Positions 8,749 to 39,929 are shown, counted from the first letter of the stretch. The stretch: 64,000 bases of DNA from an uncultured Clostridia bacterium (GCA_944388585.1 CALXJI010000003.1:79360-143359); one strand, 5' to 3'. Numbers and translations: made by a program. Notes: generated by a model not told the origin, from the sequence alone.

Positions 8749-8849
8749 ATTACACCTCACTAGATTATATGTCTTATTTTTTAATCTATTCAATATGTAT
8801 AATTGAAAAAAGTTTATATAATAATATATAATTATATAAGGTGAAATAA

Positions 8850-12408: not shown

Positions 12409-12450
12409 AAAAAGAGTATTAATGAAGAAACTTCATTATATACTCTTTTT
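12409..12450. terminator. long bidirectional hairpin terminator between convergent genes
   Basis: AAAAAGAGTATTAATGAAG-aaa-CTTCATTATATACTCTTTTT, flanked by T runs on both strands. Confidence 0.7.
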
Positions 12451-13910: not shown

Positions 13911-13913
13911 TAT

Positions 13914-14576
13914 TTATATCTCTTCCTTTTCAAATTTTTCTTTTATTGTTTTCTTTAAAATAATTCTTTTAGGACATGCATATCCATCTGTTATATAAAT
14001 TTCAATTCCCTTACTTTGAAAATTTAATAAAATCTTTTTTATATCCTGGTTAATAGTATCACCTATAACTATTATTTTATCTATATTATTTTGTTTGAAA
14101 TATTCAGCAGACGGAACATCTTGTTTATATAAGTCCCAACTATTATCAAAAATTGATTCTTTTGATCTATATCTATTTATTCTGTAACTATCTAATAAAA
14201 AAGCTGGATTTGCATCGTTTTTTAGATTAATATTTTTTAGTATTTCACTACCATTTATTAGACAACTTTCTATTAAATAAGTGTTATTAGTAGCAATACA
14301 TCCTTGTTGTTCATCAGTGCCATTAAAAACGGGGATTGGTCTATATCCTAAATAAGATAAAGCAATTCCAAACTCTATACTCTCTTTACCAGGTAAATCC
14401 ACAAATATAGCACTATCTTGTTGATATTTCTTTATAAACACTATTTTTCTATCACACCAATCACTAATAGGTTTTCTATTATAAATATCAATTGCAACAA
14501 ATGGTACTGGTCTTACCCAATCTATCCACTTTGCTCCATTAGGTGCATATATTTTAAAAATATCTTTTCCGTTCAT
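13914..14576 (-). CDS. hypothetical protein (220 aa), translationally coupled between ATP-grasp and HSS-like genes
   Basis: No recognisable motif; several conserved-looking Cys (DWCDRK, QQGCIATNN, GYACPK); 3-4 nt intergenic gaps on both sides. Confidence 0.3.
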   Translation of the reverse strand: MNGKDIFKIYAPNGAKWIDWVRPVPFVAIDIYNRKPISDWCDRKIVFIKKYQQDSAIFVDLPGKESIEFGIALSYLGYRPIPVFNGTDEQQGCIATNNTYLIESCLINGSEILKNINLKNDANPAFLLDSYRINRYRSKESIFDNSWDLYKQDVPSAEYFKQNNIDKIIVIGDTINQDIKKILLNFQSKGIEIYITDGYACPKRIILKKTIKEKFEKEEI

Positions 14577-14587
14577 ATTATCATCCT

Positions 14588-15793: not shown

Positions 15794-15826
15794 ATATACT
15801 CACTTTCTTTTATACATTTTAGTTTA

Positions 15827-16297
15827 TTAATATATTATCCCATTATTTTCTTTATATTTTTCAAAAAGCTTACTACATTCTTCATGATCTATTTGCGTTA
15901 AATTAATATCTAATGAATTTTTACCCTTAAGATAATTATATAATGCATCATCTCTAAATCCTATTTTAGCAGCATCTTTTCTTGTTGCACCATAATATAC
16001 TTTTTTTATATTTGCCCATACAATAGCACAAAAACACATAGGACATGGTTCACAACTTGTATATAAAATATATCCAGATAAATCATATGTATTTAATTTT
16101 TTACATGCATTTCTTATAGCTTGAATTTCTGCATGTGCAGTAGGATCATTATTTTTAAGCACTTGATTATTTCCTGTAGATATTACTTCTCCATCTTTAT
16201 CTACAATAACTGCACCGAAAGGTCCTCCTTCATTGTTTATAATTCCTTCTTTTGCATTTTCATTTGCTATTTCCATATATTTATTCATACTATACAT
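15827..16297 (-). CDS. guaD: guanine deaminase (CDA fold)
   Basis: 156 aa; GGPFGAVIV..NDPTAHAEIQAIRNACKKL..ILYTSCEPCPMCFCAIVWA nearly collinear with B. subtilis GuaD (156 aa). Confidence 0.7.
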   Translation of the reverse strand: MYSMNKYMEIANENAKEGIINNEGGPFGAVIVDKDGEVISTGNNQVLKNNDPTAHAEIQAIRNACKKLNTYDLSGYILYTSCEPCPMCFCAIVWANIKKVYYGATRKDAAKIGFRDDALYNYLKGKNSLDINLTQIDHEECSKLFEKYKENNGIIY

Positions 16298-16350
16298 CTC
16301 CTATTTTAATCAAAATTAATTTTACTTATTCTTAAACATAATAGCTATAT

Positions 16351-16986
16351 TTATTTAATATACTCATAAAAACTATTAGGTATTCCATATCTTGCAAGAT
16401 GTCCATTCTTATAATTTTCATCATCTGTAACATCTTTTATAACCCAATCATAAGATTTAAAATTATTAGCTTCTTCTTCTGATTCAAATTCTATTTCTAA
16501 ATAAGCTAGGCCTTCTAACTCTCCAGAAAATATATCAATTGCTAACAAATCATCTCCATCTAAAAATTGATATCTTGTTTTTAAAATAGTATTTCCTTCT
16601 CTCTTTTTTATCAAATTTTCATATTCTTCTTTAGTAATATTTATCTCCATCTCGTCTCTTATCATTCCATCTGATGTCATATTAGTTTTTACTGTAAAAG
16701 TGTATTCTTCTCCATTATTTATTCTTCTAACTCTTATTTCTGGAGAAAAACATATATATGTTTGCTCAATCATTGAAATTTGCGAATTAGTTAAATCATA
16801 TGGAATTTTTTCCTTATCTATTATCCATTTTCTCTCTATTTCAACAGAATCTGAAGTTATAGAATTAACTTTCTCAATATATTTTTTATCATATATAATA
16901 TTTTTTAAATAAATAGTAAATACAATAATTAAAATTACTATTAAAATAAAAATTATAATATCTAGTCCAATACTTTTTTTATTCAT
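16351..16986 (-). CDS. membrane-anchored CYTH-domain (triphosphate tunnel metalloenzyme) protein
   Basis: N-terminal TM helix, then the EIERKWII signature of CYTH domains and acidic motifs (EIEFESEEE). Confidence 0.55.
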   Translation of the reverse strand: MNKKSIGLDIIIFILIVILIIVFTIYLKNIIYDKKYIEKVNSITSDSVEIERKWIIDKEKIPYDLTNSQISMIEQTYICFSPEIRVRRINNGEEYTFTVKTNMTSDGMIRDEMEINITKEEYENLIKKREGNTILKTRYQFLDGDDLLAIDIFSGELEGLAYLEIEFESEEEANNFKSYDWVIKDVTDDENYKNGHLARYGIPNSFYEYIK

Positions 16987-16996
16987 ATTCGCTCCT

Positions 16997-17317
16997 TTAT
17001 ATAATTTTTAATGTATTTACATATTCAGAGCATAACCATAAAATTATACTAATTATAATCAATACTATTAAATAAATTTTTATTTTTCTAACTTTTTCTT
17101 CTTTATCTTTTTTGGAAGTATTCATATACCATATAGCAAATAAAATATATGCAAAAACAAGCATAAAAACAAATACTTTAATAGATCCAGATATATCTGA
17201 TATTTCCATATTATGTACTTCTTGACTTGTAAGTCCTCTAACAGCAAATATATATGTAGAATTTAAAGTTAAACTAATACTGATAAATATAAAATACATT
17301 ATTTTTCTTATTTTCAT
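16997..17317 (-). CDS. small membrane protein (2 TM)
   Basis: 106 aa with two hydrophobic helices; no known motif. Confidence 0.35.
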   Translation of the reverse strand: MKIRKIMYFIFISISLTLNSTYIFAVRGLTSQEVHNMEISDISGSIKVFVFMLVFAYILFAIWYMNTSKKDKEEKVRKIKIYLIVLIIISIILWLCSEYVNTLKII

Positions 17318-17387
17318 ATACTCTTCCTCCTATGTTTTAATATTACACATATTTACTTTTTTAATAATAAACATCTTTATAAAAAAT

Positions 17388-17426
17388 AAAAGCTATAAAG
17401 TATAATATATCATACTTTATAGCTTT
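17388..17426 (-). terminator. intrinsic terminator downstream of tRNA-Arg/tadA
   Basis: 14-bp stem AAAGCTATAAAGTA / TACTTTATAGCTTT followed on the minus strand by a T run. Confidence 0.7.
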
Positions 17427-17431
17427 AATAT

Positions 17432-17508
<77 letters not shown>

Positions 17509-17554
17509 AATAACATAATATATTATACAACAAATATTCATATAATTCAAGTTT

Positions 17555-17968
17555 TCACTTTCTTAAGTCTTTAAAAAAATCACTTAATATTTTAGAGCAT
17601 TCTTTATACTCCATATTAACTAACAATTTTTTATCATATTGTGTTGAATTATTATCTAAAGCTCCAAAATATACCTTCTCAATTCTAGCCTGTTTTATCG
17701 CTCCTAAACACATTTGACATGGATATAAAGTAACATACATTTTACATCCTTCAAGTCTCCATGCCTTTAATTTTTTACATGCTTTATTTATACATAAAAT
17801 CTCTGCATGTGCTAAAGCATTTTTTTTAGTTTCACGTAAATTATATGCTCTTGAAATTATCTTATCTTCTTTTACAATAATTGCGCCAACTGGTACTTCT
17901 TTTTTTTTATAAGCTTTTTTTGCCTCTTTAAAAGCTTCAATCATATATTTATCCACATTATCCACCAT
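17555..17968 (-). CDS. tadA: tRNA-specific adenosine deaminase TadA
   Basis: 137 aa; VPVGAIIV...HAEILCINKACKKL...PCQMCLGAI zinc-binding CDA motifs (HAE, PCxxC) at TadA spacing. Confidence 0.8.
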   Translation of the reverse strand: MVDNVDKYMIEAFKEAKKAYKKKEVPVGAIIVKEDKIISRAYNLRETKKNALAHAEILCINKACKKLKAWRLEGCKMYVTLYPCQMCLGAIKQARIEKVYFGALDNNSTQYDKKLLVNMEYKECSKILSDFFKDLRK

Positions 17969-18054
17969 AATTATTATACAGTATATTTGATATAAAATAA
18001 AGCATACTTGAAATTTATTTTAAAAATGATATAATAATAGAAGATTTTAAAAAA

Positions 18055-18131
18055 GACTTTGTAACTCAGTTGGATAGAGTGCTTCCCTCCTAAGGAAGAA
18101 GTCGGCGGTTCAAATCCGCCCAAGGTCACCA
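18055..18131 (+). tRNA. tRNA-Arg (anticodon CCT)
   Basis: GACTTTGTAACTCAGTTGGATAGAGTGCTTCCCTCCTAAGGAAG..GGCGGTTCAAATCCGCCCAAGGTCACCA; anticodon loop CTCCTAA; T-arm GGTTCAAATCC. Confidence 0.9.
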
Positions 18132-18143
18132 TATTTTTCTATA

Positions 18144-18185
18144 AAACATAGTGATTTTTATATAAATACTATGTTTTTATTTTTG
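18144..18185 (+). terminator. intrinsic terminator after tRNA-Arg(CCT)
   Basis: AAAACATAGT..ACTATGTTTT stem followed by TATTTTTG. Confidence 0.7.
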
Positions 18186-18281
18186 ATAGTAAAAAATTAA
18201 ATATTAAGTATCGAAACTACTAAATAAAAATATATTATAACATGCAAAATATAAATAAAAATTATTAATTAATTTTTACAT

Positions 18282-18779
18282 TTAAACAATATATGGCTCT
18301 AATAATTTAAGTAATACCACAACTACAAATGTTGAAAATAATAAAATCATAGTATAAATATAAGAAAGTCTTTTTGAATACGGAGATGCCAACTTTGTCC
18401 ATTCATCCAAATTTTCAACTCTAACCATACCTTTCTTGTTGCACTTTGGACAAACTATTTCTTTTGCATATTTTTTATATTTTGGATAAAATACAATGCA
18501 TTCTTCCGTAGTATATTTTCCGGAATAATAATATTCTATTCTCTTTTCAACTTTTTCTTTTGACTTTCTAAAATAATGTTTTTTTATAAATCCATAGGAA
18601 AAAGTAAAAGTTTCCTTGCAATCATCACAAACACATCTAAATTGAAAACCCAAATTAGAAAGCTTTTTTTTCATTTTTTCAACAATAACTATTAATCCTA
18701 TTACAAACCATAATACAACTACTATAATTGATAATATCACATATGTTTCTGAATCCATAATACCACCCACTATCTTCAC
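18282..18779 (-). CDS. membrane protein with zinc-ribbon (2 x CxxC) between N- and C-terminal TM helices
   Basis: 165 aa; CVCDDCKETF ... CPKCNKKG; hydrophobic termini. Confidence 0.35.
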   Translation of the reverse strand: MKIVGGIMDSETYVILSIIVVVLWFVIGLIVIVEKMKKKLSNLGFQFRCVCDDCKETFTFSYGFIKKHYFRKSKEKVEKRIEYYYSGKYTTEECIVFYPKYKKYAKEIVCPKCNKKGMVRVENLDEWTKLASPYSKRLSYIYTMILLFSTFVVVVLLKLLEPYIV

Positions 18780-18860
18780 ATTTTTATATTATAATTGAAA
18801 TTGTGATATATTAAATTATATCATCTACAATATTTTTATTCCATATATTTTATATAAATT

Positions 18861-18892
18861 ATGAGACTGTTTGAAAAAACAAACAGTCTCAT
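18861..18892 (-). terminator. intrinsic terminator after the 1444-aa gene
   Basis: 13-bp stem ATGAGACTGTTTG / CAAACAGTCTCAT immediately past the stop codon. Confidence 0.7.
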
Positions 18893-18895
18893 ATT

Positions 18896-21800
18896 CTACT
18901 TTTTCACTTTCATTTTTTTATTTCTAACTCTATATTTAGAAACATTTTCTTTTATCTTTAAATTATCTTTAGCAACAGTAATAAGTAGTTTTATTCTGTT
19001 TATCTGATTTGTTTGACTTGCTCCTGGATCATAATCTACAGGAGAAATATTTGCTTGTGGGAATTTTCTTCTTATTGTTTTTATAACACCTTTTCCAACA
19101 ACATGATTTGGAAGACAAGCAAAAGGTTGTACACATACTATATTTGGTATATCATTTTCTATATATTCAATCATTTCAGCTGTTAAAAACCATCCTTCAC
19201 CTGTTTGATTTCCAATAGATAATACATTTTGTACTTTTTCTTCAAGCTCCCATATATCACATGGCGGTAAATATCCTTTTTTAGATTTTGCAAGTGCTTG
19301 TTTTGCATCTTTTTCAAATCCATCTATTAAATTAATAGCTAATTTACAAATCTTTGAAGCTATCTTATCTTTTTTAAGCAGCTTATTATTTGTTATACTA
19401 TGTGTTGCCATATATTTTACAAATCCCATAAAATCTGGCATTACTACTTCTGCACCCTCATTTTCTAATACATCTATAACGTAATTATTTCCAAATGGAT
19501 GATATTTAATTAATATTTCACCTACAACACCTACTCTAGGTTTTACCTGCTTTTTATTTATTTGAATATTTTCAAAATCATCTACCATTTGGTAAATTCC
19601 TTGCTTAAATTCTTTCATATCACCATTTGCTATTATTTCTTTTCCTTTTTCAAGCCATTTATTATATACTTTTTCTGATTCTCCTTTTTTCACTTCATAT
19701 GCTCTATTTTTAAGTAGCATTTTTTGTAAAAGATCTCCATATACAACAGCTTTTATTAACTTTACTGCAAGAGATGGAGTAATTTTAAATCCACTAGATT
19801 TTTCCATTCCTTTCACATTAAATGAAATAATAGGTATATTAGAGTATCCAGCATCTTTTAATGCTTTTCTAATAAATCCAATATAGTTAGTTGCTCTACA
19901 TCCTCCACCTGTTTGTGACATTATAAGTGCTGTTTTATTTAAATCATATTTACCAGAGTCTAATGCCTCAATCATTTGGCCTGTTGTTATAATAGAAGGA
20001 TAACATGCATCATTATTTACATATTTTAGTCCTGTCTCTATTGTATGCTCTGTACACTCTCTTAAAAGCTCAACATTATACCCCTCTGCTTTCATTGCTG
20101 CAAGTAATAACTCAAAATGTATTGGTGCCATTTGTGGTACTAAAATAGTATATCCTTCTTCTTTCATTTCTTTAGTAAATTTTACTTTATCTATTTCATA
20201 ATTTCCTAAATCTTGTTCTTGATTTTCTTGTATTTTAGGATTAGCATCTTCCATTTTCTTTTGTTGCATTCTTTTATTCATACTAGCAAGTAATGATCTT
20301 ACACGTATTCTTACAGCACCTAAATTATTTATTTCGTCTATTTTTATTAATGTATACATATTATTATAACTTGTTAATATTTCTTCTACCTCGTCTGTTG
20401 TTACAGCGTCAACGCCACATCCAAATGAATTTAGTTGTATCATTTCAAGAAAATCATGTCTTCCAACATATTCAGCTGCAGCATATAATCTTGAATGATA
20501 TACCCACTGATCTACAACTCTTATTGGTCTTCTAACTTGGGCTTTATCTGATACACTATCTTCAGATAATACACAAAGTCCAAGGCTTGTTATTAATGTA
20601 TCTATACCATGGTTTATTTCTGGATCAACATGATAAGGACGTCCAGCAAGTACAATACCCCTTAAATTGTTTTCTTTTATATAATCTACAATCTCCTGAC
20701 CTTTTTTATGCACATCATCTCTAAATCTTTGATATTCATTTTCTGCCTCTTTAGCTGCTTTTAACACTTCAGATTTTTTAAAATGGTATTCTTTAAATTC
20801 AGGAAGTTCCATTACAACTTCTGTTAATCTCTTTGGATCGAAAGGTAAAAACGGATTAATATATTTTACATCTTTAAGTTCTTCTACATTATTTTTTATT
20901 ACTTCTGAATAAGACGCTACTATTGGACAATTATATGAGTTATCTGCACCTTCAAACTCTTTACGAGAATTAGAAATACATGGATAAAAAATAGTTTTTA
21001 TCCCTTTATTTATTAAGCTCATAATATGTCCATGTGCAAGCTTTGCAGGATAGCATACAGACTCAGATGGCATAGATTCCATACCTTTTTCATATGTTTT
21101 TCTATTACTCTTTTCAGAAATTATTACCCTAAATCCAAGATTAGTAAAGAAAGTAAACCAAAATGGATAATCTTCATACATATTTAAAACTCTAGGAATT
21201 CCTATTGTTCCTCTTTTAGCATCTTCTTGTGACAATGGCTTGTATGAAAATAATCTTTCATTTTTATATTTATACATATTAGGTAAATCATTTTGAACAT
21301 TTGTATTTCCAGCACCTTTTTCACATCTATTACCTGATACAAATATTTTACCATTACCAAATTTATTTATTGTTAATCTACAATTATTTTCACATTTTCC
21401 ACATCTTGCATGAGTAATTTTAATATCTAATTTATCTATCTCATCTGGTTTTAGCATAGTAGATTTATAATAATCATCCTCATTTGCTATAAATTGCTCT
21501 TTAGCAAGTAATGCTACTCCATATGCACCCATAAGTCCTGCAATATCTGGTCTTATTACATCTCTTCCTGTTATTTTTTCAAAGCTACGTAGTACTGCAT
21601 CGTTATAAAAAGTACCACCTTGAACAACTATATTTTTACCAAGCTTTCTTACATCACGTATTTTCATAACTTTTTGAATAGCATTTTTTACAACCGAATA
21701 TGAAAGCCCACTAGATATATCTCCAACAGTTGCTCCTTCTTTTTGAGCTTGTTTTATTCTAGAATTCATAAATACAGTACATCTAGATCCTAGATCCACA

Positions 21801-23230
21801 GGTGCTTGAGATTTTATAGCTTCATTTACGAATTCTTCTATGCTTACGCCTAAACTTTTAGCAAAAGTTTCAATAAATGATCCACATCCAGATGAACAAG
21901 CTTCGTTTAGCATAATATTATCTATAGCATCATTTTTTACCTTAATGTATTTCATATCTTGTCCGCCTATATCTATAATGCTACTTACCTTTGGCATAAA
22001 CTCTTTAGCTGCAGTATAATGTGCTATTGTTTCAATTTCACTAAGATCTATATTTAATGCTGTTTGTATTAGCTTTTCACCATACCCTGTAACGCCAACA
22101 TATCTTAAAATAGCTCCATCTGGAATATTTGAATATAATTTTTTAACCATGGATATTACACTTGTTAATGGATTTCCCCTATTACTTCCATAAAGCGAGT
22201 AAAGTAATGCTCCATCTTTATCTATAGCAACTAATTTTGTAGTTGTAGATCCTGCATCTATTCCTACAAATATATCTCCTTTTGTATCTTCTAGTTTTCC
22301 TCTTTTTACCTTATCTTTTTCATGACGTTTTTTAAATTCATCATATTCTTGCTCATTTTTAAATAATGGTTCTAAAGGCTTTGTCTCTGTATATTTTGCA
22401 TCTTTAAACTCTTCTAATTTTTCTTGTAGTTGTCTAGTTGTTATTTTCTCTGTATCTAAAGATGCAAGTGCTGCTCCTTTTGCAACTAGCAAATGTGCTT
22501 CATCTGGTACAATAACTTCATCATCTTTTAGTTTTAAAGTTTCAATAAACCTTTTTCTAAGTTCTGGTAAATAATTTAATGGTCCACCTAAAAAAGCAAC
22601 TTTTCCTTTAATTGGTCTACCACATGCAAGTCCACTTATTGTCTGGTTTACTACGGCCTGAAAAATAGAGGTAGCAATATCTTCTTTTCTTGCTCCTTCA
22701 TTTATTAAAGGTTGTACATCAGTTTTTGCAAACACACCACATCTTGATGCAATAGGATATATAATTTCATGTCCCTTAGATAACTCATTTAATCCTTGTG
22801 TATCAGTGTTTAGTAAAGACGCCATTTGATCTAGAAAAGCACCTGTTCCTCCTGCACATGTTCCGTTCATTCTTTGCTCTATAAATTTATCAAAATAAAT
22901 TATTTTTGCATCTTCTCCACCAAGCTCTATTACTACATCAGTTTGTGGAATATACTTTTCTACTGCTCTTTTACAAGCAATTACCTCTTGAATAAAAGGT
23001 ATACCTAAAACTTTAGATATTTCAAGTGCACCAGACCCTGTCAAAGACATAGTATAGGTACTATTTGGAAAATCTTTTATTAGTTTTTTTAGTACTTCAT
23101 ATATAGTATTTTTAGTATCTGAATGGTGTCTAGTATAACTTGTATATAAATTCTCTAATTTATCGTTCATTACTACAATTTTTACCGTTGTTGATCCAAC
23201 ATCTAGACCAACATGTAATGTTTTATTCAT
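18896..23230 (-). CDS. fused acyl-CoA dehydratase activase-like protein (two BadF/BcrA/HgdC-type ATPase domains plus a dehydratase-component-like domain)
   Basis: 1444 aa; two acetate/sugar-kinase-fold starts (LHVGLDVGSTTVKIVVM and IFVGIDAGSTTTKLVAI); Cys-rich C-terminal domain; SD GAGGTGAA before the ATG. Confidence 0.6.
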   Translation of the reverse strand: MNKTLHVGLDVGSTTVKIVVMNDKLENLYTSYTRHHSDTKNTIYEVLKKLIKDFPNSTYTMSLTGSGALEISKVLGIPFIQEVIACKRAVEKYIPQTDVVIELGGEDAKIIYFDKFIEQRMNGTCAGGTGAFLDQMASLLNTDTQGLNELSKGHEIIYPIASRCGVFAKTDVQPLINEGARKEDIATSIFQAVVNQTISGLACGRPIKGKVAFLGGPLNYLPELRKRFIETLKLKDDEVIVPDEAHLLVAKGAALASLDTEKITTRQLQEKLEEFKDAKYTETKPLEPLFKNEQEYDEFKKRHEKDKVKRGKLEDTKGDIFVGIDAGSTTTKLVAIDKDGALLYSLYGSNRGNPLTSVISMVKKLYSNIPDGAILRYVGVTGYGEKLIQTALNIDLSEIETIAHYTAAKEFMPKVSSIIDIGGQDMKYIKVKNDAIDNIMLNEACSSGCGSFIETFAKSLGVSIEEFVNEAIKSQAPVDLGSRCTVFMNSRIKQAQKEGATVGDISSGLSYSVVKNAIQKVMKIRDVRKLGKNIVVQGGTFYNDAVLRSFEKITGRDVIRPDIAGLMGAYGVALLAKEQFIANEDDYYKSTMLKPDEIDKLDIKITHARCGKCENNCRLTINKFGNGKIFVSGNRCEKGAGNTNVQNDLPNMYKYKNERLFSYKPLSQEDAKRGTIGIPRVLNMYEDYPFWFTFFTNLGFRVIISEKSNRKTYEKGMESMPSESVCYPAKLAHGHIMSLINKGIKTIFYPCISNSRKEFEGADNSYNCPIVASYSEVIKNNVEELKDVKYINPFLPFDPKRLTEVVMELPEFKEYHFKKSEVLKAAKEAENEYQRFRDDVHKKGQEIVDYIKENNLRGIVLAGRPYHVDPEINHGIDTLITSLGLCVLSEDSVSDKAQVRRPIRVVDQWVYHSRLYAAAEYVGRHDFLEMIQLNSFGCGVDAVTTDEVEEILTSYNNMYTLIKIDEINNLGAVRIRVRSLLASMNKRMQQKKMEDANPKIQENQEQDLGNYEIDKVKFTKEMKEEGYTILVPQMAPIHFELLLAAMKAEGYNVELLRECTEHTIETGLKYVNNDACYPSIITTGQMIEALDSGKYDLNKTALIMSQTGGGCRATNYIGFIRKALKDAGYSNIPIISFNVKGMEKSSGFKITPSLAVKLIKAVVYGDLLQKMLLKNRAYEVKKGESEKVYNKWLEKGKEIIANGDMKEFKQGIYQMVDDFENIQINKKQVKPRVGVVGEILIKYHPFGNNYVIDVLENEGAEVVMPDFMGFVKYMATHSITNNKLLKKDKIASKICKLAINLIDGFEKDAKQALAKSKKGYLPPCDIWELEEKVQNVLSIGNQTGEGWFLTAEMIEYIENDIPNIVCVQPFACLPNHVVGKGVIKTIRRKFPQANISPVDYDPGASQTNQINRIKLLITVAKDNLKIKENVSKYRVRNKKMKVKK

Positions 23231-31605: not shown

Positions 31606-32082
31606 TTGTCGGTGATAGAATTGGAAGAATTAGTAAAATATTTTAAGAAATATAATCTAGAATCTAGAATTAAAACTTTTTCATCTTCTTCTGCAACAGT
31701 AGAACTTGCTGCTAAAGCTTTAAACTGTAATCCAGAAAATATAGCAAAGACTTTATCATTTGATGTAAACAATAATACAATATTAATAGTAACAGCAGGA
31801 GATATGAAAATAGATAATGCTAAATTTAAAAACAAATTCAATGTAAAGCCTAAAATGTTAAAGTTAGAAGAAGTCGAAGAAAAAACTGGATATCCTGTAG
31901 GAGGAGTTTGTCCTTTTAATCTAAAAAATAATATACATGTGTTTTTAGATTTATCTTTAAAAAGATTTGAAAAAATATATCCTGCATGTGGAACTCCAAA
32001 TAGTGCTATATTACTTACTATTGAAGAACTTGAAAAATACTCTGATTTTACTGAATGGATAGATGTATGCAAAAGAAAGTGA
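31606..32082 (+). CDS. YbaK/ProX-type aminoacyl-tRNA deacylase domain protein
   Basis: 158 aa; pattern of the YbaK/EbsC trans-editing domain (..VKTLSF..; GYPVGGVCPF). Confidence 0.55.
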   Translation: MSVIELEELVKYFKKYNLESRIKTFSSSSATVELAAKALNCNPENIAKTLSFDVNNNTILIVTAGDMKIDNAKFKNKFNVKPKMLKLEEVEEKTGYPVGGVCPFNLKNNIHVFLDLSLKRFEKIYPACGTPNSAILLTIEELEKYSDFTEWIDVCKRK

Positions 32083-32149
32083 ACCCAACTAGGTTCACTT
32101 TAAAATTACTTATTACAATAATGTATCATCAAAAATTAATATTTCTTAA

Positions 32150-32683
32150 TTAGCTTTTATATACATCTTTTCCATATCTATTCTTTATTTTTATCTTTAT
32201 CCTTCTTATTCTTGTTCTAATAGTCTTTTCATTAGTATTTAAAATCGTTCCTATTTCTGCAGTAGTATATCCACGAGAAAAATACAAAATAACAATTGTT
32301 TTTTCGTCTTTAGACAAAAAATCTATTAAATTAAATAAATCTATATTACTATCTACTTCAATATATTCATCATTAGTTTCAAAGTAATTATCACACTCTA
32401 AATCGTCATAAGAATAAAAATTTCTCATATTATTTCTCATTATATTATTACAATTATTTATTAAAACCCTAGTTATCCATCCATTAAAAGAGCCATCATT
32501 TCTTAAAGTATTTATGTTTCTAAATGTTTGATATATTGTCTCTTGAACAGCATCTTTTATATCTTCATCTTGATCCAATCTACTTTTTGCAATAACAAAT
32601 AGCTTTCTTTCATACAACTCAATTAATTTAGCAAAAGCATCCTTATCTCCTTCTTTTGATCTTTTAATTAAATTCTCTTCCAT
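32150..32683 (-). CDS. ECF-type RNA polymerase sigma factor
   Basis: Region 2 DAVQETIYQTF; region 4 GYTTAEIGTILNTNEKTIRTRIRRIK. Confidence 0.7.
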   Translation of the reverse strand: MEENLIKRSKEGDKDAFAKLIELYERKLFVIAKSRLDQDEDIKDAVQETIYQTFRNINTLRNDGSFNGWITRVLINNCNNIMRNNMRNFYSYDDLECDNYFETNDEYIEVDSNIDLFNLIDFLSKDEKTIVILYFSRGYTTAEIGTILNTNEKTIRTRIRRIKIKIKNRYGKDVYKS

Positions 32684-32778
32684 ATTTTCCCCTCTTCTTA
32701 TTCACACGAAAATTATATCATAAAAAATAGGATTTAGGTATTTCATTCCTAAATCCCAATAATGATTTTAGAGTAAAT

Positions 32779-33546
32779 TTATTCATTAGTGATATAAGTA
32801 TCTATATACTCTTGTAATGATTCGAACTCTCCAGTTTCATTATTTTTTATCTCCAATGAAGATATATCTAGATTCTGAACAGCAACCCTTGATTTATTTT
32901 GTTGTATATTTAGTTCTCTCAAACCATTTCCAAGTCCTATTACCTCGTATTGCTCATCTGAATTTTCTTTTAAATATACTAAATAGCTCTTTCCAGATTC
33001 TATTTCTATATCACCAGATATCAATACATTAATGTAAGTATTATCTAAATCAATACTTGTATTATTCTCAGAACGTAGGTATTCACGCTTTAAATTAGCT
33101 GCATCCGGTTGAGTTTCTTCCCAATCTGACATTTTCATTATTCCACCTGGTTTTGTATACTCTATAACTTGTCCTTGTTCTAATTCTCCTTTTAAAACAG
33201 TATTAATAAGCATTTTACCATCTGTCATTCCAATTAAACTTCCTTCAGGATCAGCCCCATCTAATGAAATAACAGTTGCAAGTGCAATACAATCAGCATC
33301 TTCACCTAACTTATTTGGTGTAAATTCTTCTACTAAGCAAAGCTGTGTAACACAATCATATGTTGAATTTTTAATTTCATCTGTAATATAACTTGTTATC
33401 TCATATGTCTGCTCCTTAATATTTGAATTTTCTTTAACCTCACCATATAGATTGTCATTTTTTAATTTATATCCTACTAAAACAGTAAAATATAATAGAA
33501 CAATAACACTTGCCACAACAACAACAATCTTTTTTTTCATAAACAT
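32779..33546 (-). CDS. membrane-anchored extracytoplasmic protein (signal-anchor N-terminus)
   Basis: MFMKKKIVVVVASVIVLLYFTVLVGY signal anchor; remainder hydrophilic, acidic; sits upstream of the ECF sigma gene. Confidence 0.35.
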   Translation of the reverse strand: MFMKKKIVVVVASVIVLLYFTVLVGYKLKNDNLYGEVKENSNIKEQTYEITSYITDEIKNSTYDCVTQLCLVEEFTPNKLGEDADCIALATVISLDGADPEGSLIGMTDGKMLINTVLKGELEQGQVIEYTKPGGIMKMSDWEETQPDAANLKREYLRSENNTSIDLDNTYINVLISGDIEIESGKSYLVYLKENSDEQYEVIGLGNGLRELNIQQNKSRVAVQNLDISSLEIKNNETGEFESLQEYIDTYITNE

Positions 33547-33702: not shown

Positions 33703-34188
33703 TTAAGACTCTTTTTGTATTATTTTGTCATTTTTTATTACAAAATGTTTAATATTATTTGTTAATCCTTTTATTATTTCTTGCTTTAGAAAATCTGGTT
33801 TAAACTTATCTAATTGATTAATAGAGATCCATTTAAATTCTAGCAAAGTACCATCTTGTTCTTTCTTAATATAGTCTTTCAAATCTACTTTATCCTTAAA
33901 TTCTAATAAATAATATAATCCTAATTCATGACATTTTACTCTTTTACTATAAAAAAAATTTTCTGTTACATATAATAATCTTTTTATACTTACATTCATG
34001 TCTGTTTCTTCCTTAAACTCTCGTATAATAGCTTCTTTGCTATCTTCATTTAGCTCAACATGTCCACCAGGTAAGCAAAAAAAATCATTATCATTTATTT
34101 TTACACATAGTAATTTATTATTATTTATTGCTATACCAGATACCCTATATTTAAATCTGATATTATATTTTTCTAATTCAATATCCAT
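33703..34188 (-). CDS. NUDIX hydrolase
   Basis: Nudix box GGHVELNEDSKEAIIREFKEETDMNV (G.5E.7REUXEEXGU). Confidence 0.8.
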   Translation of the reverse strand: MDIELEKYNIRFKYRVSGIAINNNKLLCVKINDNDFFCLPGGHVELNEDSKEAIIREFKEETDMNVSIKRLLYVTENFFYSKRVKCHELGLYYLLEFKDKVDLKDYIKKEQDGTLLEFKWISINQLDKFKPDFLKQEIIKGLTNNIKHFVIKNDKIIQKES

Positions 34189-34197
34189 ATACCCTCA

Positions 34198-35094
34198 CTA
34201 AATAGATTTTGTATCTACATATCTAGCTGGTTTTATATCAAAATTAACCGGCTGCGATAAAGCTGTTAATATATTTTTTCTAATATCTCCATCTAAATAT
34301 TTTATATCATTTTCATCTGATTGAATACATTGTTTTAATTTTCCTGAGCTTGTTACTCTTAAATGCATTTTTTTACATACGTCACATTCTCTTATCCTAC
34401 AATGTGAGTGAAAAAATGTTACAGCTATAAAATCATCACTATCAACTCCATGATATTCTTTAAATAATTCATCAAATTTAGAAGTTAAGTTGAAATCTGA
34501 TAATATTCTATCTTTCATTTTTAAATATTCTATGTCAGTAGAGTCAGCAACTTCATTTTTCACTTCTTCTAAAATTTTTATTCTTATTTTATTCTTCTTT
34601 GCCCAATCAACTAATTTATATAAATTATTATAATCACCATTATATACAGTAGAAATAGTAACATTAACACCTGTTTCTTTTACTTTTAAAATATTTTCTA
34701 AAGCTTTTTTAGAGCTAATACCAACAGGTGATTGTTTAGATATTGGAGCATCATAATAGTCTAATCCAACTACAACTCTATATATCCATCCCTTTTTAAT
34801 CATATACATTAACTTGTCTATTTCAACTATATTAGTATTTATTCCAACTTTTAAATGATACTTTTCTGCAAGCATCTGACATATATCATAAATTTCTTTA
34901 TGAATAAGTGGTTCTCCTCCAGTAAGTCTAACTTGCTCTAAGCCCAAATCATATGAATTTTTTATTAATTTTTCTATATCATCTTTTGATAATTGATTAA
35001 TTATCTTATTTCCCTCATTATGACAATAAACACATTTCATATTACATGCTGATGTTATAGATATTCTATATTCATTTTTTGGCAATTGTAACAT
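34198..35094 (-). CDS. MoaA-like radical SAM enzyme (two Fe-S cluster motifs)
   Basis: CNMKCVYC (CxxxCxxC) plus RLTGGEPL SAM motif; C-terminal C-x2-C-x13-C (CDVCKKMHLRVTSSGKLKQC), the MoaA auxiliary-cluster spacing; 298 aa; no moaC/moaB/mog neighbours. Confidence 0.6.
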   Translation of the reverse strand: MLQLPKNEYRISITSACNMKCVYCHNEGNKIINQLSKDDIEKLIKNSYDLGLEQVRLTGGEPLIHKEIYDICQMLAEKYHLKVGINTNIVEIDKLMYMIKKGWIYRVVVGLDYYDAPISKQSPVGISSKKALENILKVKETGVNVTISTVYNGDYNNLYKLVDWAKKNKIRIKILEEVKNEVADSTDIEYLKMKDRILSDFNLTSKFDELFKEYHGVDSDDFIAVTFFHSHCRIRECDVCKKMHLRVTSSGKLKQCIQSDENDIKYLDGDIRKNILTALSQPVNFDIKPARYVDTKSI

Positions 35095-35117
35095 TTTACT
35101 TCCTCTCCTTTAAAAAA

Positions 35118-35891
35118 TTAATATCTTTTTTTACCCAAATCTATTCTTAAATTATCAAAATTTAAATCATATTTTCTAGTAGAATATTTATATAGTTCAT
35201 TTATTCTTTCCAGTTTTTGTTCTTTTGTTGTTCCTTCTTCTATTGCATTAAAAAATAGTTGTATAAAATTCTTTTCAGGAATTTTCTTATGTTGTGCTAA
35301 TTGTAATCTCTCATTTGTATACAATTTGTATATTTTTGTTTGTGACAAATTTGAAAAGCCATTTAATTTATGATAAAAATCTCTTATTCTTTCAACTGTT
35401 AAAAAATAATAATTTTCAAAATAAGGATCATTTTGTATTCTTAATTCATTTAAAGCTAAAACTGCTTTATGAATTCCTGCAATCTGATATATTGCCTCAT
35501 GTTTTGTATAACATGGTAATGGTCTGGAATATTTCTCTTTTATATATGCTACTAAGTCTGAAATTTTTCCATTTCTATCAAATATTACTTCACCATATCC
35601 AATCATTGATAATAATGAATCTTCACATTTCATATAATCTGAATTTGCACGTTCATAAATTTTTGATATTGTTCTTTCAAAATACTCTACTTGTATTCCA
35701 TTAACATTTTTATATCCTTTTATTTGATTTGTGTCTGAATCATCATCATACAATATCATTAAATCTATGTCTGAAAACTCATTTGCTGTTTGAGTATGAT
35801 AGCTACCATAAAAGATTATACCTTCTACTTCTTCATTTTTTAAATAATTCATATCATCTATAAATTTATTTAAAGCATCTCTATAATTCAT
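35118..35891 (-). CDS. nucleotidyltransferase-domain protein (Pol-beta superfamily, KNTase/ANT-like two-domain architecture)
   Basis: GSYHTQTANEFSDIDLMILYDDDSD (G[SG]..9-13 DhD) NTase motif plus a helical C-terminal domain; SD GAGGTG before the internal ATG at 35891 (the ORF extends to 35972). Confidence 0.55.
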   Translation of the reverse strand: MNYRDALNKFIDDMNYLKNEEVEGIIFYGSYHTQTANEFSDIDLMILYDDDSDTNQIKGYKNVNGIQVEYFERTISKIYERANSDYMKCEDSLLSMIGYGEVIFDRNGKISDLVAYIKEKYSRPLPCYTKHEAIYQIAGIHKAVLALNELRIQNDPYFENYYFLTVERIRDFYHKLNGFSNLSQTKIYKLYTNERLQLAQHKKIPEKNFIQLFFNAIEEGTTKEQKLERINELYKYSTRKYDLNFDNLRIDLGKKRY

Positions 35892-36014
35892 AAAACACCT
35901 CAAAAAAATCCAATAGAAATTTTTATAATTTCTACTGGACATAATTATACCATATAATATTACTTTTTTCAATACTACAAAGATAATATTTTACATAAAT
36001 TAATTTCATAACTA

Positions 36015-36179: not shown

Positions 36180-36527
36180 CTAAAACTTTACCAACTCTTC
36201 TATTGCTTCACCCATTGATTTTTGTAAATCTGCTAATATTATATTTATTTTCATTTCACATTCTAAAATTTTTCTACAATCATCATTTTGAATTACAATA
36301 GAATATAAATTTTCCATCTCTTGTTGTTTTTCTTTAGAAATATCTTTACCATTTAAATAACTAATTTGTACTTCATTTTGCTTCTCTTTAAAGTCTTTTA
36401 ACATGTTATATACTTCATTATTCTTTTTTAAATTTTCTTTTAAATCTAAATATTCTTTATACTCTTGAGTTTCTTTAAAAGATTCAACAAGTTTATTAAT
36501 ATTTTCATGAAAATTCATTAATATCAT
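36180..36527 (-). CDS. YlbF/YmcA (YheA, UPF0342) family regulator
   Basis: 115 aa; helical pattern ESFKETQEYKEYLDLKENL..MLKDFKEKQNEVQ..ECEMKINIILADLQKSMGEAIEEL collinear with the B. subtilis YheA/YmcA family. Confidence 0.55.
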   Translation of the reverse strand: MILMNFHENINKLVESFKETQEYKEYLDLKENLKKNNEVYNMLKDFKEKQNEVQISYLNGKDISKEKQQEMENLYSIVIQNDDCRKILECEMKINIILADLQKSMGEAIEELVKF

Positions 36528-36581
36528 CCTTTCTTTAGGATAATATTATATAACATTTTGATTATTTTTTAAACACTTTAT

Positions 36582-37274
36582 TTAAATTTCATCTAAACTA
36601 CTACAAATATCATATTGTGTTTTTGTAAGCTTTTGTTTTCTAACATTTACTAACTCCGTTATATTTTGAATTATATTATTCTCATTTATACAATCATTAT
36701 TAAAATTCACCTTATATTTTAACTTATTTAATTTATTAGCTATTTCTTTTATCTGTCTTAAATCAAAATTATCATATGCATCATACCAATCATTACACAA
36801 TTCCTTAAAGTCATCTACTTTATTCATACATTTTTCAACATTCAAATCTATTTTCTTTTTAAATTCTGTACTTGAAATAAAGCTTTTTAAATCTCCAAAA
36901 AAATCATCTATATAATTATAAAATATATTTCCATATTTTTTTGTTGTACTAACTATATCTATTCCAATGTTGATACAATTAGATAAGCCTCCCTTAAATG
37001 CAGCTTCCACCATTTTATTAATTTCACTAATATTTTTTTCTGGTACTCCTGCTATTTCAAGGCCTTCTTTTATACTACTTGTAAGTGCAGTATTCAATAT
37101 TTTTAAAAAATCTCCCTGTTTTAATACTTTCTTTACATCAATTAAAACCTCTTTAATATGTTCATTTACTGGCATTCCTTTAATAACATAATTTGCACCT
37201 TTATCTATTATATTTAATATTATATTCATAAGTTCTTCTTTATTCTTTTCTACTTCTAAATCTTCTTTTTGCAT
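36582..37274 (-). CDS. hypothetical soluble protein (230 aa), third gene of the ATPase operon
   Basis: No recognisable motif; 2-nt gap to the upstream ATPase gene. Confidence 0.3.
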   Translation of the reverse strand: MQKEDLEVEKNKEELMNIILNIIDKGANYVIKGMPVNEHIKEVLIDVKKVLKQGDFLKILNTALTSSIKEGLEIAGVPEKNISEINKMVEAAFKGGLSNCINIGIDIVSTTKKYGNIFYNYIDDFFGDLKSFISSTEFKKKIDLNVEKCMNKVDDFKELCNDWYDAYDNFDLRQIKEIANKLNKLKYKVNFNNDCINENNIIQNITELVNVRKQKLTKTQYDICSSLDEI

Positions 37275-37276
37275 TT

Positions 37277-38404
37277 TTACTCCTCCTCTATATTAATTAA
37301 TTTATATATTATTTCATTTCTTACTTTTTCAAATTTAATAACTCCAATTGATTTTAATAGTTTTTTTAAATTATATCTTATATAAATTTTTTTGCCCGTC
37401 AATATATATTTATCTATAAAAAAACTATCTTTTATTACACCATATATGATTATATCTAATTTATTTTCAATTACTTTTATTAGTTCTTTTTTTCCTTTAA
37501 ATTTATTTATTATAAATTTACTTTTCCTTAATAGCCTTTCGTCTATAAATCTTGTTTCACTAGCAAATTCTCTTATCATACTTTTAAAAAATTGTATGCA
37601 AAAAATATATTCTACATTTAATTCTTCAAAAATATTATACATACTATTTAGCATAACTGTAGAAGTATCTACAATTACATAGTCATAATAATTACTAAAA
37701 TATACTAATAAATCAATTATATTTTTATTTTTTATAATAGGAATACTTTTAGAATTTAAAATATACTTAATATTATTGCTTTTTATATTATTGCTCTGAT
37801 AGCTTATCAAATCTTTTATATCTTCTTTTTTTATATCTTCTATTAAATTATTTAAGCCATAGTTTTTATCACTACTAACATATAAATCAAGGCATGGATA
37901 TATAAAATCAAAATCTAATATTATAACATTTTTATTTGTATTTTTTACTATTTCTTCCGAAAGAATTCTACAAAGAATTGTTTTACCAGATTTTCTTAAT
38001 CCTGTAACAATAAAAATATTACTTTTATTTTGACTCTTTTTATATATAATCATCTTAGGATTATTTATATTTTCTAATATTTCATCAAAAGAAATGTAAT
38101 TTCCTACAATAATATTAAAAATTTCTTTAGCAAATAATTTTTCTTTCATTTCTTTATTTAAATCACTTAATATTACAACTATTCTATTCTTACTATTTTT
38201 ATCTTTTATAGTATATAAATACTCTATAAAGTCCACTTTTCCTTTTACTTTATCTCTTGTTATTACAATTATTTCTTCTTCAAAAGTGATACTCTTTAAA
38301 ACCTGTTCTTTAGTTGAAAATATGAATATTTCATACTTATTTATGTACATATTTTTTATTTTATCTTCTAAATATTTATTATTCAATGCTATTATCATTT
38401 TCAT
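37277..38404 (-). CDS. P-loop NTPase, ParA/MinD/CpaE(TadZ)-like fold, with N-terminal receiver-like region
   Basis: Canonical Walker A GLRKSGKT at aa ~135, Walker B-like VIILDFD, then YVIVDTST as in ParA-type ATPases; ~120-aa N-terminal extension. Confidence 0.45.
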   Translation of the reverse strand: MKMIIALNNKYLEDKIKNMYINKYEIFIFSTKEQVLKSITFEEEIIVITRDKVKGKVDFIEYLYTIKDKNSKNRIVVILSDLNKEMKEKLFAKEIFNIIVGNYISFDEILENINNPKMIIYKKSQNKSNIFIVTGLRKSGKTILCRILSEEIVKNTNKNVIILDFDFIYPCLDLYVSSDKNYGLNNLIEDIKKEDIKDLISYQSNNIKSNNIKYILNSKSIPIIKNKNIIDLLVYFSNYYDYVIVDTSTVMLNSMYNIFEELNVEYIFCIQFFKSMIREFASETRFIDERLLRKSKFIINKFKGKKELIKVIENKLDIIIYGVIKDSFFIDKYILTGKKIYIRYNLKKLLKSIGVIKFEKVRNEIIYKLINIEEE

Positions 38405-39929
38405 TTAAAATTATCCTTTCATATTCATTAGCACTAATTACTATAGGAGCTTTATTGTTTGATATAGATAATATTGCTTCACCTTTTTGTAGATTACTTA
38501 TATTAAATTCTGATAAATCAATAAAACTACTTAAATTCTCTACATCCTTATATACCATTTTAAAAATAAGTTTAAACGACGAATTATTTAATATACTTTT
38601 TGCAAAAATTCCATTATCATATGTAAAAAAATCATTTATATCTTGAGTTATTGTAATAATAGAAGCACGTCTTTTTCTAATTGTTTTATACATATTTGAT
38701 ATACTTAATAAAAGTTGTTTACTTTGAGCATATTTCCACATTTCATCTATATATATAATAGTATTCTTTCCGTCTAAATAGCTATTTACTATATTATTTA
38801 AGACATATGAAATAATAGTAGAATCACTATTAAAATAATTAACATCAAATATGTATAAATTTTTTTCTAATGATATATTAGTTTTATCTGAAAAGAATTT
38901 AATATTAGATTTTATTTTATCATCCAATAATTTTTTTAAATATTTATCCTCAACAGTTTCAACTAAATCTTTTAATGTAGGAAATTTATCATAATTTATA
39001 ATGGTACTATCTAAGCATATCTTGCCATCTTCTTCTGTTTTTAAAATAGTGTTAATGTCTTCAGTTATATTAAATTTAAAATATATATCTTTTATTTTAA
39101 GTTTTAAATATTCAATATATATCTTTTCAATACCACATATTTCTACTAAAAAATTTATCACTTTTTTTATTTTTTCATCTAAAAAGCTTTTATCATTTAT
39201 ATTTTTTAAATCATTTTTGGTTATTTGTAATAAATTAAAATAACAACCATCTGTTATTATCTGCCCCTCAAGTTGATTACAAAGATAAAAATATTCTTTC
39301 TCAATATCTAAAACAATCTGATTTATATTTTTAAAAAAATTTCTTATAATATTTAGCTTAACAAAATAAGATTTTCCACTGCCACTACTTCCAAAAATAC
39401 ACATATTTGAATTTTCATATTTATTAGAAAATATATCTAATATACATATTTTATTATCTAATTTAGTATATCCTATAAAAACCCCATTTATATCTACAAA
39501 ATTACTACTAATATATGGAAATAAATTAGTTAATACGCTACTTGTAACAAATAAGTTATAGTTAATTTCTTTTTTTATTGGTAAATTCAAAAGATAATAA
39601 TCTAATTGTCTAAAATTAGTAATCTCTGAAATAAAATTTTTAGAATAAAGTTTAGATTTAAAACTTGACAAAATATTTAATAAATTTACTATATTATCTG
39701 AATAAAACGTTAAAGTTATATTTAAATTATATATTTCTTGATTTTCAATTTGAATTTTTCTTCTAAGTTCTTTTGCCTCTTTAGATGTCCTATCTATAAT
39801 ATCTATATTACTTTGATTTTCTTTAATAGTATGCTTTTCACTCTCAGACCTTCCAATGGTATATGAAATGTCATTTAAGACCTTATATGCATCTAATTTT
39901 TTTATATATAAAGACATGTCATAATCCAC
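38379..39929 (-). CDS. VirB4/TrsE/HerA-superfamily (AAA_10/DUF87) ATPase, C-terminal ATPase portion; in-frame open extension continues to 40091 with no canonical start
   Basis: Walker A FGSSGSGKSYF; motif IVLDIEKEYFYL..EGQII (compare VirB4 DPEGEY..GG); arginine-finger/sensor RKRRASIITITQDINDF (VirB4/HerA RK..TQ..D). ORF-track start is GTG at 39929; the 50 codons upstream are stop-free in 25%-GC DNA. Confidence 0.6.
   Translation of the reverse strand: MDYDMSLYIKKLDAYKVLNDISYTIGRSESEKHTIKENQSNIDIIDRTSKEAKELRRKIQIENQEIYNLNITLTFYSDNIVNLLNILSSFKSKLYSKNFISEITNFRQLDYYLLNLPIKKEINYNLFVTSSVLTNLFPYISSNFVDINGVFIGYTKLDNKICILDIFSNKYENSNMCIFGSSGSGKSYFVKLNIIRNFFKNINQIVLDIEKEYFYLCNQLEGQIITDGCYFNLLQITKNDLKNINDKSFLDEKIKKVINFLVEICGIEKIYIEYLKLKIKDIYFKFNITEDINTILKTEEDGKICLDSTIINYDKFPTLKDLVETVEDKYLKKLLDDKIKSNIKFFSDKTNISLEKNLYIFDVNYFNSDSTIISYVLNNIVNSYLDGKNTIIYIDEMWKYAQSKQLLLSISNMYKTIRKRRASIITITQDINDFFTYDNGIFAKSILNNSSFKLIFKMVYKDVENLSSFIDLSEFNISNLQKGEAILSISNNKAPIVISANEYERIILNENDNSIE

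Follow-up and report, generated by a model that had tools for sequence, protein, structure and literature searches.

The DNA analyzed here is a stretch of 64,000 nucleotides from an uncultured Clostridia bacterium (GCA_944388585.1 CALXJI010000003.1:79360-143359), referred to as the window; all positions are counted from its first letter. Its minus strand carries a compact operon whose three genes code for a nucleotidyltransferase (NTase), a radical S-adenosylmethionine (SAM) protein and a NUDIX hydrolase. The first gene (35118..35891) encodes a 257-aa protein of the Pol-beta nucleotidyltransferase superfamily in which, according to its model, two domains are arranged in the manner of ANT(4')/kanamycin nucleotidyltransferase (KNTase). 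The second (34198..35094) encodes a MoaA-derived radical SAM enzyme of 298 aa (Pfam Radical_SAM and Fer4_12), hereafter termed rSAM, and the third (33703..34188) a 161-aa hydrolase (Pfam NUDIX). The genes are separated by 23 and 9 nt, and a Shine-Dalgarno ribosome-binding site (RBS) is present at each gene. The same layout had been proposed in an earlier reading of this DNA, made by a model from the sequence alone (the sequence-only reading), and it was confirmed. The three genes have strong domain matches and deep sets of homologues; they are true genes, and chance open reading frames (ORFs) are ruled out.

One boundary had to be corrected. The NTase gene had been taken to extend to position 35972, as a 284-aa ORF with a TTG start. 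This TTG belongs to the -35 hexamer of the operon promoter (35944..35972, minus strand), which is composed of TTGAAA, a 17-nt spacer and a TG-extended TATAAT. Because the TTG lies inside the -35 box, the homologues are all 257 aa long and a GAGGTG RBS stands at the ATG at 35891, the latter is the real start of the NTase gene.

The window has a G+C content of ~25%, with an even composition throughout. Pfam annotation of nearly all of the larger ORFs revealed ordinary chromosomal genes (MiaA, MutL, MutS, CysS, PurA, PurB, RpiB, NAD kinase, Wzz), and in the same annotation none of MoaB, MoaC, MoaD, MoaE, MogA or MoeA was found in the whole 64 kb. The claim that no molybdopterin genes lie nearby therefore holds across the full window, and the annotated neighbours of related loci likewise include no molybdenum cofactor (Moco) genes. 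When 6 kb of the window were compared with plasmids by megablast, no match was obtained.

Conservation of the three-gene module

The NTase and rSAM genes are adjacent at 22 of the 30 loci of the rSAM family, and at 20 of these the NUDIX gene is present as well. Hence, the conservation of the three-gene arrangement that had been put forward as a check was observed, and it extends to loci that share no other neighbour. In the close clade, which comprises 16 species-level genomes, the gene order is TraG-like protein, 375-aa protein, 230-aa protein, YlbF, NTase, rSAM, NUDIX, 255-aa protein and extracytoplasmic function (ECF) sigma factor; the last one or two genes of this order were not detected at 4 of the 16 loci (L015, L018-L020). 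Identity within this clade is 75-94% for rSAM, 71-88% for the NTase, 63-86% for YlbF, 50-63% for the NUDIX protein and 35-70% for most flanking genes, rSAM and the NTase being the best-conserved genes of the neighbourhood. At the divergent loci L024, L030-L033 and L050, where the identity of rSAM is 43-60%, the triad is kept and all other neighbours are different, and L051 retains the rSAM-NUDIX pair. At L030 (Clostridium sp. CAG:389, 8001-8847) the rSAM match is split over two frames (8001-8171 and 8173-8847), which is due either to a frameshift or pseudogene, or to an assembly error.

Distant relatives carry these domains in a single polypeptide. A 427-aa protein (P0205) joins Radical_SAM to NUDIX, and four proteins of 554-625 aa (P0210, P0215, P0268 and P0308) join an NTP_transf_2/Polbeta NTase to Radical_SAM; six members of the latter type were found in all, and the four named here, whose sequences were read, have in common the SKxSPxG motif described below. 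Another distant relative, P0182 (386 aa), is a radical SAM protein with an N-terminal Cys-rich, ferredoxin-like extension.

Both the synteny across unrelated neighbourhoods and the two independent types of fusion back a functional link. Since the synteny persists where all other neighbours have been replaced, and rSAM is found fused to either partner in relatives, the data support the view that the three genes form one functional unit. The module is inherited vertically at one conserved chromosomal locus in the 16 species, and behaves as a set of core genes. Searches of phages and plasmids with rSAM (tblastn) produced only matches at the level of MoaA, with ≤28% identity, and BFVD yielded generic radical SAM matches only. 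A plasmid or mobile origin was thus rejected, as megablast, tblastn and BFVD all failed to reveal a family member.

The surroundings of L051 are of a different type. Between positions 768 and 6826 this locus carries genes for a C39 peptidase, a 111-aa ORF, YcaO, a 321-aa protein, rSAM, a short NUDIX protein and Peptidase_S51, which together have the look of a biosynthetic cluster; a Mob_Pre relaxase gene and a tRNA gene just downstream suggest a mobile context there. The 321-aa protein occupies the position of the NTase and appeared NTase-like by eye (HHDIDLYV). This candidate was dropped: Pfam returned nothing, and hhalign gave a probability of 0.1% against the NTase profile.

The radical SAM protein and its relation to MoaA

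rSAM matches Pfam Radical_SAM with 76.5 bits and carries the CNMKCVYC and LTGGEPL motifs. All of the MoaA models of NCBIfam recognize it, at scores far under their equivalog cutoffs: 122.3 bits for TIGR02666 (cutoff 284), 123.5 bits for TIGR02668, moaA_archaeal (cutoff 325), and 115 bits for NF001199 (cutoff 231). Mob_synth_C reached 16.4 bits (cutoff 37.4), and the generic N_Twi_rSAM model 35 bits (cutoff 170). The comparison with MoaA and viperin proposed in the sequence-only reading therefore places rSAM nearest to MoaA, by profile and, as described below, by structure, but below half of every MoaA cutoff.

The Cys motifs were then compared within the family. The sequence-only reading had assigned to rSAM both clusters of MoaA. 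For the N-terminal CNMKCVYC this was correct, and C17, C21 and C24 of the radical SAM cluster are invariant in the family. The C-terminal motif is not the proposed C-x2-C-x13-C; it reads C232-x4-C237-x2-C240-x15-C256, with four Cys that are invariant in all 40 family members. The same reading had noted a TGGEPL motif and the lack of the C-terminal GG of MoaA, and on both points it was accurate: rSAM ends in ...TKSI, none of the 40 members ends in GG, and their C-termini are variable. In contrast, the bacterial MoaA sequences P0217, P0219, P0222 and P0230 terminate in GG, and canonical MoaA in the comparison set keeps YCMP, C-x2-C-x13-C and the GG end. The family also has invariant motifs of its own, CNMKCxYCHNEGN and SKxSPxG (S119-K120-x-S122-P-x-G125), and the signature motifs set it apart from both archaeal and bacterial MoaA.

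In MoaA the auxiliary [4Fe-4S] cluster has three Cys ligands, with N1 of GTP as the fourth (PMC9026282, PMC5352715), Arg17, Arg266 and Arg268 are strictly conserved, and the C-terminal GG is essential in bacteria and eukaryotes (PMC9026282). In the rSAM family, all 38 sequences compared have R10, which aligns to Arg17, and all 40 have R246, which aligns to Arg268. The residue aligned to Arg266 falls inside a 2-residue insertion, and is K32/R6/Q2 or variable. Judging by the conserved Cys, the auxiliary [4Fe-4S] cluster of rSAM is probably ligated by all four of them.

These features bear on whether the protein might be the genuine MoaA (GTP 3',8-cyclase) of this genome, of an archaeal-like type without GG, and the NTase and NUDIX genes unrelated neighbours. 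Its best family models are indeed those of MoaA, with moaA_archaeal at the top, MoaA is its first structural neighbour, and the residues aligned to Arg17 and Arg268 are invariant. Archaeal MoaA (TIGR02668) shares with it the N-terminal CX3CX2C, GGEP, a C-terminal Cys-rich region and YCHxEG, and likewise lacks GG. However, two sequences that we judged from their motifs to be archaeal-type MoaA (P0213 and P0214) keep the three-Cys C-x2-C-x13-C, whereas rSAM has four Cys at other spacings, adds HNEGN and SKxSPxG, and does not conserve Arg at the Arg266 position. It is accompanied by an NTase and a NUDIX hydrolase that are conserved with it, and fused in distant relatives, instead of by MoaC or other Moco genes. 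Because of the scores, the missing GG tail, the other auxiliary motif and the lack of Moco genes nearby, rSAM is not MoaA, and we consider it extremely unlikely that it serves as the cyclase of this genome. rSAM is derived from MoaA, yet distinct from it.

The AlphaFold2 model of rSAM has a mean predicted local distance difference test (pLDDT) value of 89.9. Its closest structural neighbour is MoaA (TM score 0.69, 21% identity), followed by SuiB, viperins, AbmM, BlsE, SkfB and DesII, and in the PDB the N-terminal half finds its best sequence match in AbmM (8WM2; E-value 2e-12). With a CX3CX2C cluster and a C-terminal Cys-rich region, rSAM has the layout of a twitch/SPASM-like protein, and MoaA, SuiB, SkfB and anSME are structural neighbours that we take to be enzymes of the twitch/SPASM type. 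We infer that the C-terminal region of rSAM is a twitch-like auxiliary-cluster region.

The high ranking of the SuiB, SkfB and CteB-type maturases raises the possibility that rSAM, with its twitch-type C-terminal domain, acts on a small precursor peptide in the maturation of a ribosomally made peptide that is modified after translation (RiPP). The relative at L051 adjoins YcaO, a C39 peptidase and the 111-aa ORF, and a 55-aa ORF (orf55) lies upstream of the operon in the window. As a RiPP precursor orf55 was rejected: it is part of the ylbF unit, upstream of the promoter of the module, it has a single Cys, and the distant triad loci do not have it. Furthermore, no RRE or peptide-binding domain was detected, rSAM has just 298 aa, and its partners are nucleotide enzymes rather than proteases or transporters. 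A role as peptide maturase is, in our judgment, highly improbable.

The appearance of viperins among the structural neighbours is relevant to an anti-phage function, which the sequence-only reading had considered. Viperins use CTP or UTP as substrate and are often paired with nucleotide-processing partners. If rSAM were to produce a viperin-like chain-terminating or signalling nucleotide, the NTase could make or transfer it and the NUDIX hydrolase could confer immunity or reset the system. The partial TIM-barrel fold is similar (TM score ~0.6-0.67), PADLOC models gave weak matches with all three proteins (pVip, 49-52 bits, over the rSAM core, residues 12-181; PDC-S09 with the NTase; PDC-S07 with the NUDIX protein), and HalB of Hailong is a weak structural neighbour of the NTase. 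The matches in PADLOC-DB 2.0 were, however, weak and confined to the level of domains, and did not add up to a defence system, and the viperin model NF038283 of NCBIfam gave 41 bits (cutoff 180). To our knowledge, viperins have no auxiliary cluster, and the C-terminal Cys motif of rSAM is without a counterpart in them. The NTase is ANT-like and not CD-NTase-like. The triad is neither mobile nor patchy: it sits at a fixed, vertically inherited locus where rSAM and the NTase are more conserved than the flanks, and among sequenced phages and plasmids no family member was found. The viperin-like interpretation was therefore given up, and a defence function is quite unlikely.

The extent of the family was estimated with a profile built from the 40 members, which was searched against 1.84 billion cluster representatives (clusters at 50% identity). 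At E ≤ 1e-30 there were 44 matches, with ~29 full-length representatives scoring 219-432 bits. Below a gap in score came sequences of 125-168 bits in which YCHNEGQ and the four-Cys motif are still present, and then, at ~100-120 bits, a continuum that includes canonical MoaA. rSAM thus founds a small new family. In the genome collection its members come from metagenome-assembled genomes labelled uncultured Clostridia, Clostridiaceae, Ruminococcaceae, Clostridium sp. or Bacilli, many of them from animal or human gut samples. JGI gave the name 'cyclic pyranopterin phosphate synthase' to two homologues, P0031 and P0106, probably in error, and the automatic use of this name for the family is put in doubt. 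Outside the family, Stenotrophomonas phage TS-12 (MW302330.1, 30866-31801) encodes a full-length MoaA-like hypothetical protein with 26% identity over 99% of the query.

Partner enzymes and the transcription unit

The assignment of the first gene to the Pol-beta-type NTases with a GS...DxD motif was borne out. The protein exceeds the cutoffs of Pfam Polbeta (35.8 bits; cutoff 26.9) and NTP_transf_2 (30.5 bits; cutoff 21), and in the catalytic motif, GS...SDIDLMILYDDD, the residues G29, S30, S40, D41 and D43 (G29 S30 ... S40 D41 x D43) are invariant in the alignment. Its AlphaFold2 model (pLDDT 90.7) was compared by Foldseek. The neighbours were 3c18, ANT(4') (6un8 and 1kny; TM score ~0.55) and LinB, and further ones were ANT(4')-IIb and ANT(6). 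According to the model, the fold is that of a small-molecule O-nucleotidyltransferase, ANT(4')-like and unlike that of CD-NTases. With ANT(4')/kanamycin nucleotidyltransferase, LinB and 3C18 it has in common the two-domain layout, a Pol-beta catalytic domain followed by a C-terminal helical bundle, and the GS...DxD motif; it differs in its identity of only 10-14% and in being dedicated to a radical SAM partner, to which it is fused in distant relatives.

Since its best characterized neighbours are ANT(4'), ANT(4')-IIb, LinB and ANT(6), the operon could be read, as had been suggested, as a cassette for resistance to antibiotics or xenobiotics, possibly under the control of the ECF sigma factor encoded downstream, which may be co-transcribed; APH-family kinases in the sister clade described below would fit such a function. 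The fold is ANT(4')-like, but the NTase has no sequence match in the PDB and no match among the ANT or antimicrobial resistance models of NCBIfam at E ≤ 0.01, and its identity to the ANTs is the low structure-based value given above. For a resistance enzyme a radical SAM partner would be superfluous, yet the two are fused in relatives, and the module is a chromosomal core feature with no plasmid copies. We consider a resistance cassette very unlikely.

The NUDIX protein scores 51.9 bits with Pfam NUDIX (cutoff 21.1). Its Nudix box (G41 G42-x5-E48-x7-R56 E57 xx E60 E61, that is, G-HVELN-E-DSKEAII-REFKEETDM) departs from the motif only at the final G, which is changed to D, and does not vary among 11 orthologues whose identity goes as low as 29%. 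No model of a specific NUDIX subfamily was matched at its cutoff. From their conserved residues, both the NTase and the NUDIX hydrolase look catalytically competent.

Weak matches of the NUDIX protein to RNA pyrophosphohydrolase models direct attention to RNA. In a pathway of RNA or tRNA modification or repair, rSAM would alter a base or ribose, the NTase would act on RNA ends and the NUDIX hydrolase would remove a 5' pyrophosphate or cap. Aminoacyl-tRNA synthetase or tRNA genes are often found near the family loci, with a standalone DALR_1 gene at one of them, and TYW1 and MiaB, radical SAM enzymes with three-Cys auxiliary clusters, provide parallels in tRNA modification (PMC5352715). The type of synthetase, however, changes from locus to locus, and no RNA-binding domain was detectable. 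In its fold the NTase is much closer to small-molecule ANTs than to poly(A) polymerases or terminal uridylyltransferases, and the sister contexts (APH, DUF1919, weak glycosyltransferase-like and GT-D-like matches) point to the chemistry of small molecules or glycans. An RNA substrate is unlikely.

The operon promoter is the best promoter-like site of the 32-40.5 kb region, with 11 of 12 positions matched and an extended -10 element, and TGnTATAAT is unchanged across 15 species in the alignment. Between the promoter and the RBS of the NTase gene there is a leader hairpin of 13-14 bp followed by a U-run (35900..35940, minus strand), with a minimum free energy of -15.6 kcal/mol (z = -4.5). In the alignment, 95% of the cells are paired, and compensatory changes are seen at 8 of 13 pairs; the observed values were reached by 0 of 500 shuffles. 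The arrangement of promoter, hairpin and U-run ahead of the NTase RBS is kept in 15 species. A search of the window against Rfam (E ≤ 1) gave no match for the leader, and at 11 other loci Rfam returned tRNAs only. The hairpin, which was picked up as terminator-like by the terminator scan, may be the terminator of the upstream ylbF-orf55 unit, an attenuator or a 5' stabilizer.

On this strand the scan detected only the leader hairpin and a site after the sigma factor gene (32101..32076), and no terminator between the NUDIX gene and the latter. Because no terminator was seen before the post-sigma site, the operon may read through, in the close clade, into the genes for the 255-aa protein, which has an N-terminal hydrophobic anchor and is membrane-anchored or secreted, and for the ECF sigma factor (32150..33546, minus strand). 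That a secreted protein and an ECF sigma factor are encoded downstream on the same strand had been reported and is correct; they are syntenic in the close clade only, and lie outside the conserved module.

Upstream of the operon, on the same strand, a block of four genes (36180-39929) codes for a TraG/HerA-like P-loop ATPase of 516 aa, a protein of 375 aa that weakly matches AAA, a 230-aa protein and a YlbF/YmcA-family protein, and the conserved orf55 comes after the last of these. The block is syntenic in the 16 close species (at L020 it ends at the contig end) and absent from the distant triad loci. A further region of the minus strand (12450-23230) encodes a saccharopine dehydrogenase-like protein, a 220-aa protein and a glutathionylspermidine synthase-like protein (GSP_synth). 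It also contains two cytidine/dCMP deaminase-like proteins that flank a CYTH protein and a 106-aa protein, and a 1444-aa BcrAD_BadFG/DUF2229 fusion of the 2-hydroxyacyl-CoA dehydratase activator type.

A candidate nucleotide-linked tailoring pathway

All three proteins keep their catalytic signatures. Our favoured interpretation, in which we have moderate confidence, is that the operon encodes a Moco-independent pathway, centred on the MoaA-derived rSAM, in which a nucleotide or a small molecule linked to one is tailored. Nucleotide chemistry is proposed because rSAM is close to enzymes acting on nucleotides and nucleoside-linked sugars, the NTase is ANT-like and the Nudix box is invariant. 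As a general idea, the view of the sequence-only reading that these genes are a toolkit for modified-nucleotide chemistry was right, the partners being nucleotide-handling enzymes.

AbmM (8WM2), BlsE (7VOB) and DesII (8HZV) carry out radical tailoring of nucleotide- or nucleoside-linked sugars in multi-enzyme pathways. They are structural neighbours of rSAM with a structure-based identity of 11-17%; they differ from it in their C-terminal regions and partners, and belong to actinomycete antibiotic clusters, whereas rSAM belongs to a compact core operon of gut Clostridia. In the OxsB/OxsA system, and in that of PolH/NikJ with its kinase and phosphatase, the substrate reaches the radical SAM enzyme as a nucleotide or in phosphorylated form, and a partner hydrolase strips the phosphate, a strategy known as 'cryptic phosphorylation'. 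The triad may follow the same logic of a handle, with a radical SAM enzyme of another subfamily, a NUDIX hydrolase where those systems have an HD protein or a phosphatase, and an NTase for which they have no equivalent.

In the pathway that we envisage, the NTase would place a nucleoside monophosphate (NMP) on a small substrate, at a hydroxyl or phosphate group, so that an intermediate linked to an NMP or a nucleoside diphosphate (NDP) is formed. rSAM would hold the nucleotide part through R10 and R246, together with the invariant R56, K120, K173, R233 and K254, and its 5'-deoxyadenosyl radical would take a hydrogen, so that the substrate is rearranged, dehydrated or cyclized. The auxiliary cluster, if ligated by four Cys, would serve as an electron conduit and not as a substrate ligand as in MoaA. 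Finally, the NUDIX hydrolase would split the pyrophosphate, and the product would be released or recycled. Another order is equally compatible, in which rSAM alters a free nucleoside triphosphate (NTP), the NTase moves the modified NMP to an acceptor and the NUDIX hydrolase clears the surplus. We infer both the substrate and the succession of steps from these resemblances.

Several points weigh against the proposed pathway. The mechanistic account rests throughout on family resemblance. ANT-type transfer to a hydroxyl yields a phosphodiester, which is no substrate for a NUDIX enzyme; the simple linear order therefore needs a phosphorylated acceptor. The peptide maturases SuiB and SkfB are equally good structural neighbours of rSAM. 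The NUDIX gene was lost from 2 of the 16 close species (L013 and L016), and at the NTase-rSAM fusion loci examined there is no NUDIX gene in the few kb of flanking DNA; at L056 and L057 these contexts contain ATP-cone, 2H phosphoesterase, LemA and TPM, and no NUDIX.

A sister clade of rSAM is found with other partners, and in a neighbour-joining tree the contexts fall apart by clade. At L026-L029 the genes code for DUF1919, the radical SAM protein, an APH-family kinase and a HIT protein. At L023 and L052 the radical SAM protein is accompanied by an APH kinase and unknown proteins, to which L023 adds a methyltransferase and Peptidase_S51, and L052 adds DUF1919, a GT4-like protein (weak, sub-threshold) and weak to faint GT-D-like Pfam matches. 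At L029 a standalone DALR_1 gene (ArgRS anticodon-binding) follows directly after the HIT gene, with ArgRS upstream. In both clades the partners are enzymes that transfer or remove phosphate or nucleotides. Partners of this kind suggest a substrate, probably resembling a sugar, to which a phosphate or nucleotide is attached as a handle. The context of APH, HIT and DUF1919, together with the glycosyltransferase-like genes, is indicative of a sugar-like substrate in phospho- or nucleotide-activated form, and the product may be a cell-surface component or a secondary metabolite.

A bolder proposal, which we advance tentatively, is that the family runs a new radical reaction, with either a purine NTP or a sugar-like compound linked to an NDP as substrate, using a four-Cys cluster repurposed from that of MoaA. 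Together with the NTase and the NUDIX hydrolase, it would make a new metabolite from a nucleotide, which could be a cofactor, a bioactive nucleoside or a component for building the envelope, and which would have a core role in a lineage of uncultured gut Clostridia; the clade with APH, HIT and DUF1919 would make a related compound by a kinase route.

Our search of the literature, on the gene combination and on MoaA paralogues, found no publication that describes the module. We conclude that the module is a conserved, previously undescribed enzyme set on a new MoaA-derived radical SAM subfamily. Many uncharacterized radical SAM subfamilies exist, and a specialist would thus be only moderately surprised by one more. 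Functionally diverged offshoots of MoaA are rare, and are a typical source of new radical nucleotide chemistry, and the compact three-gene module is directly clonable. As the module is core and strongly conserved in an uncultured gut lineage, its product may matter to the physiology of bacteria of the animal and human gut.

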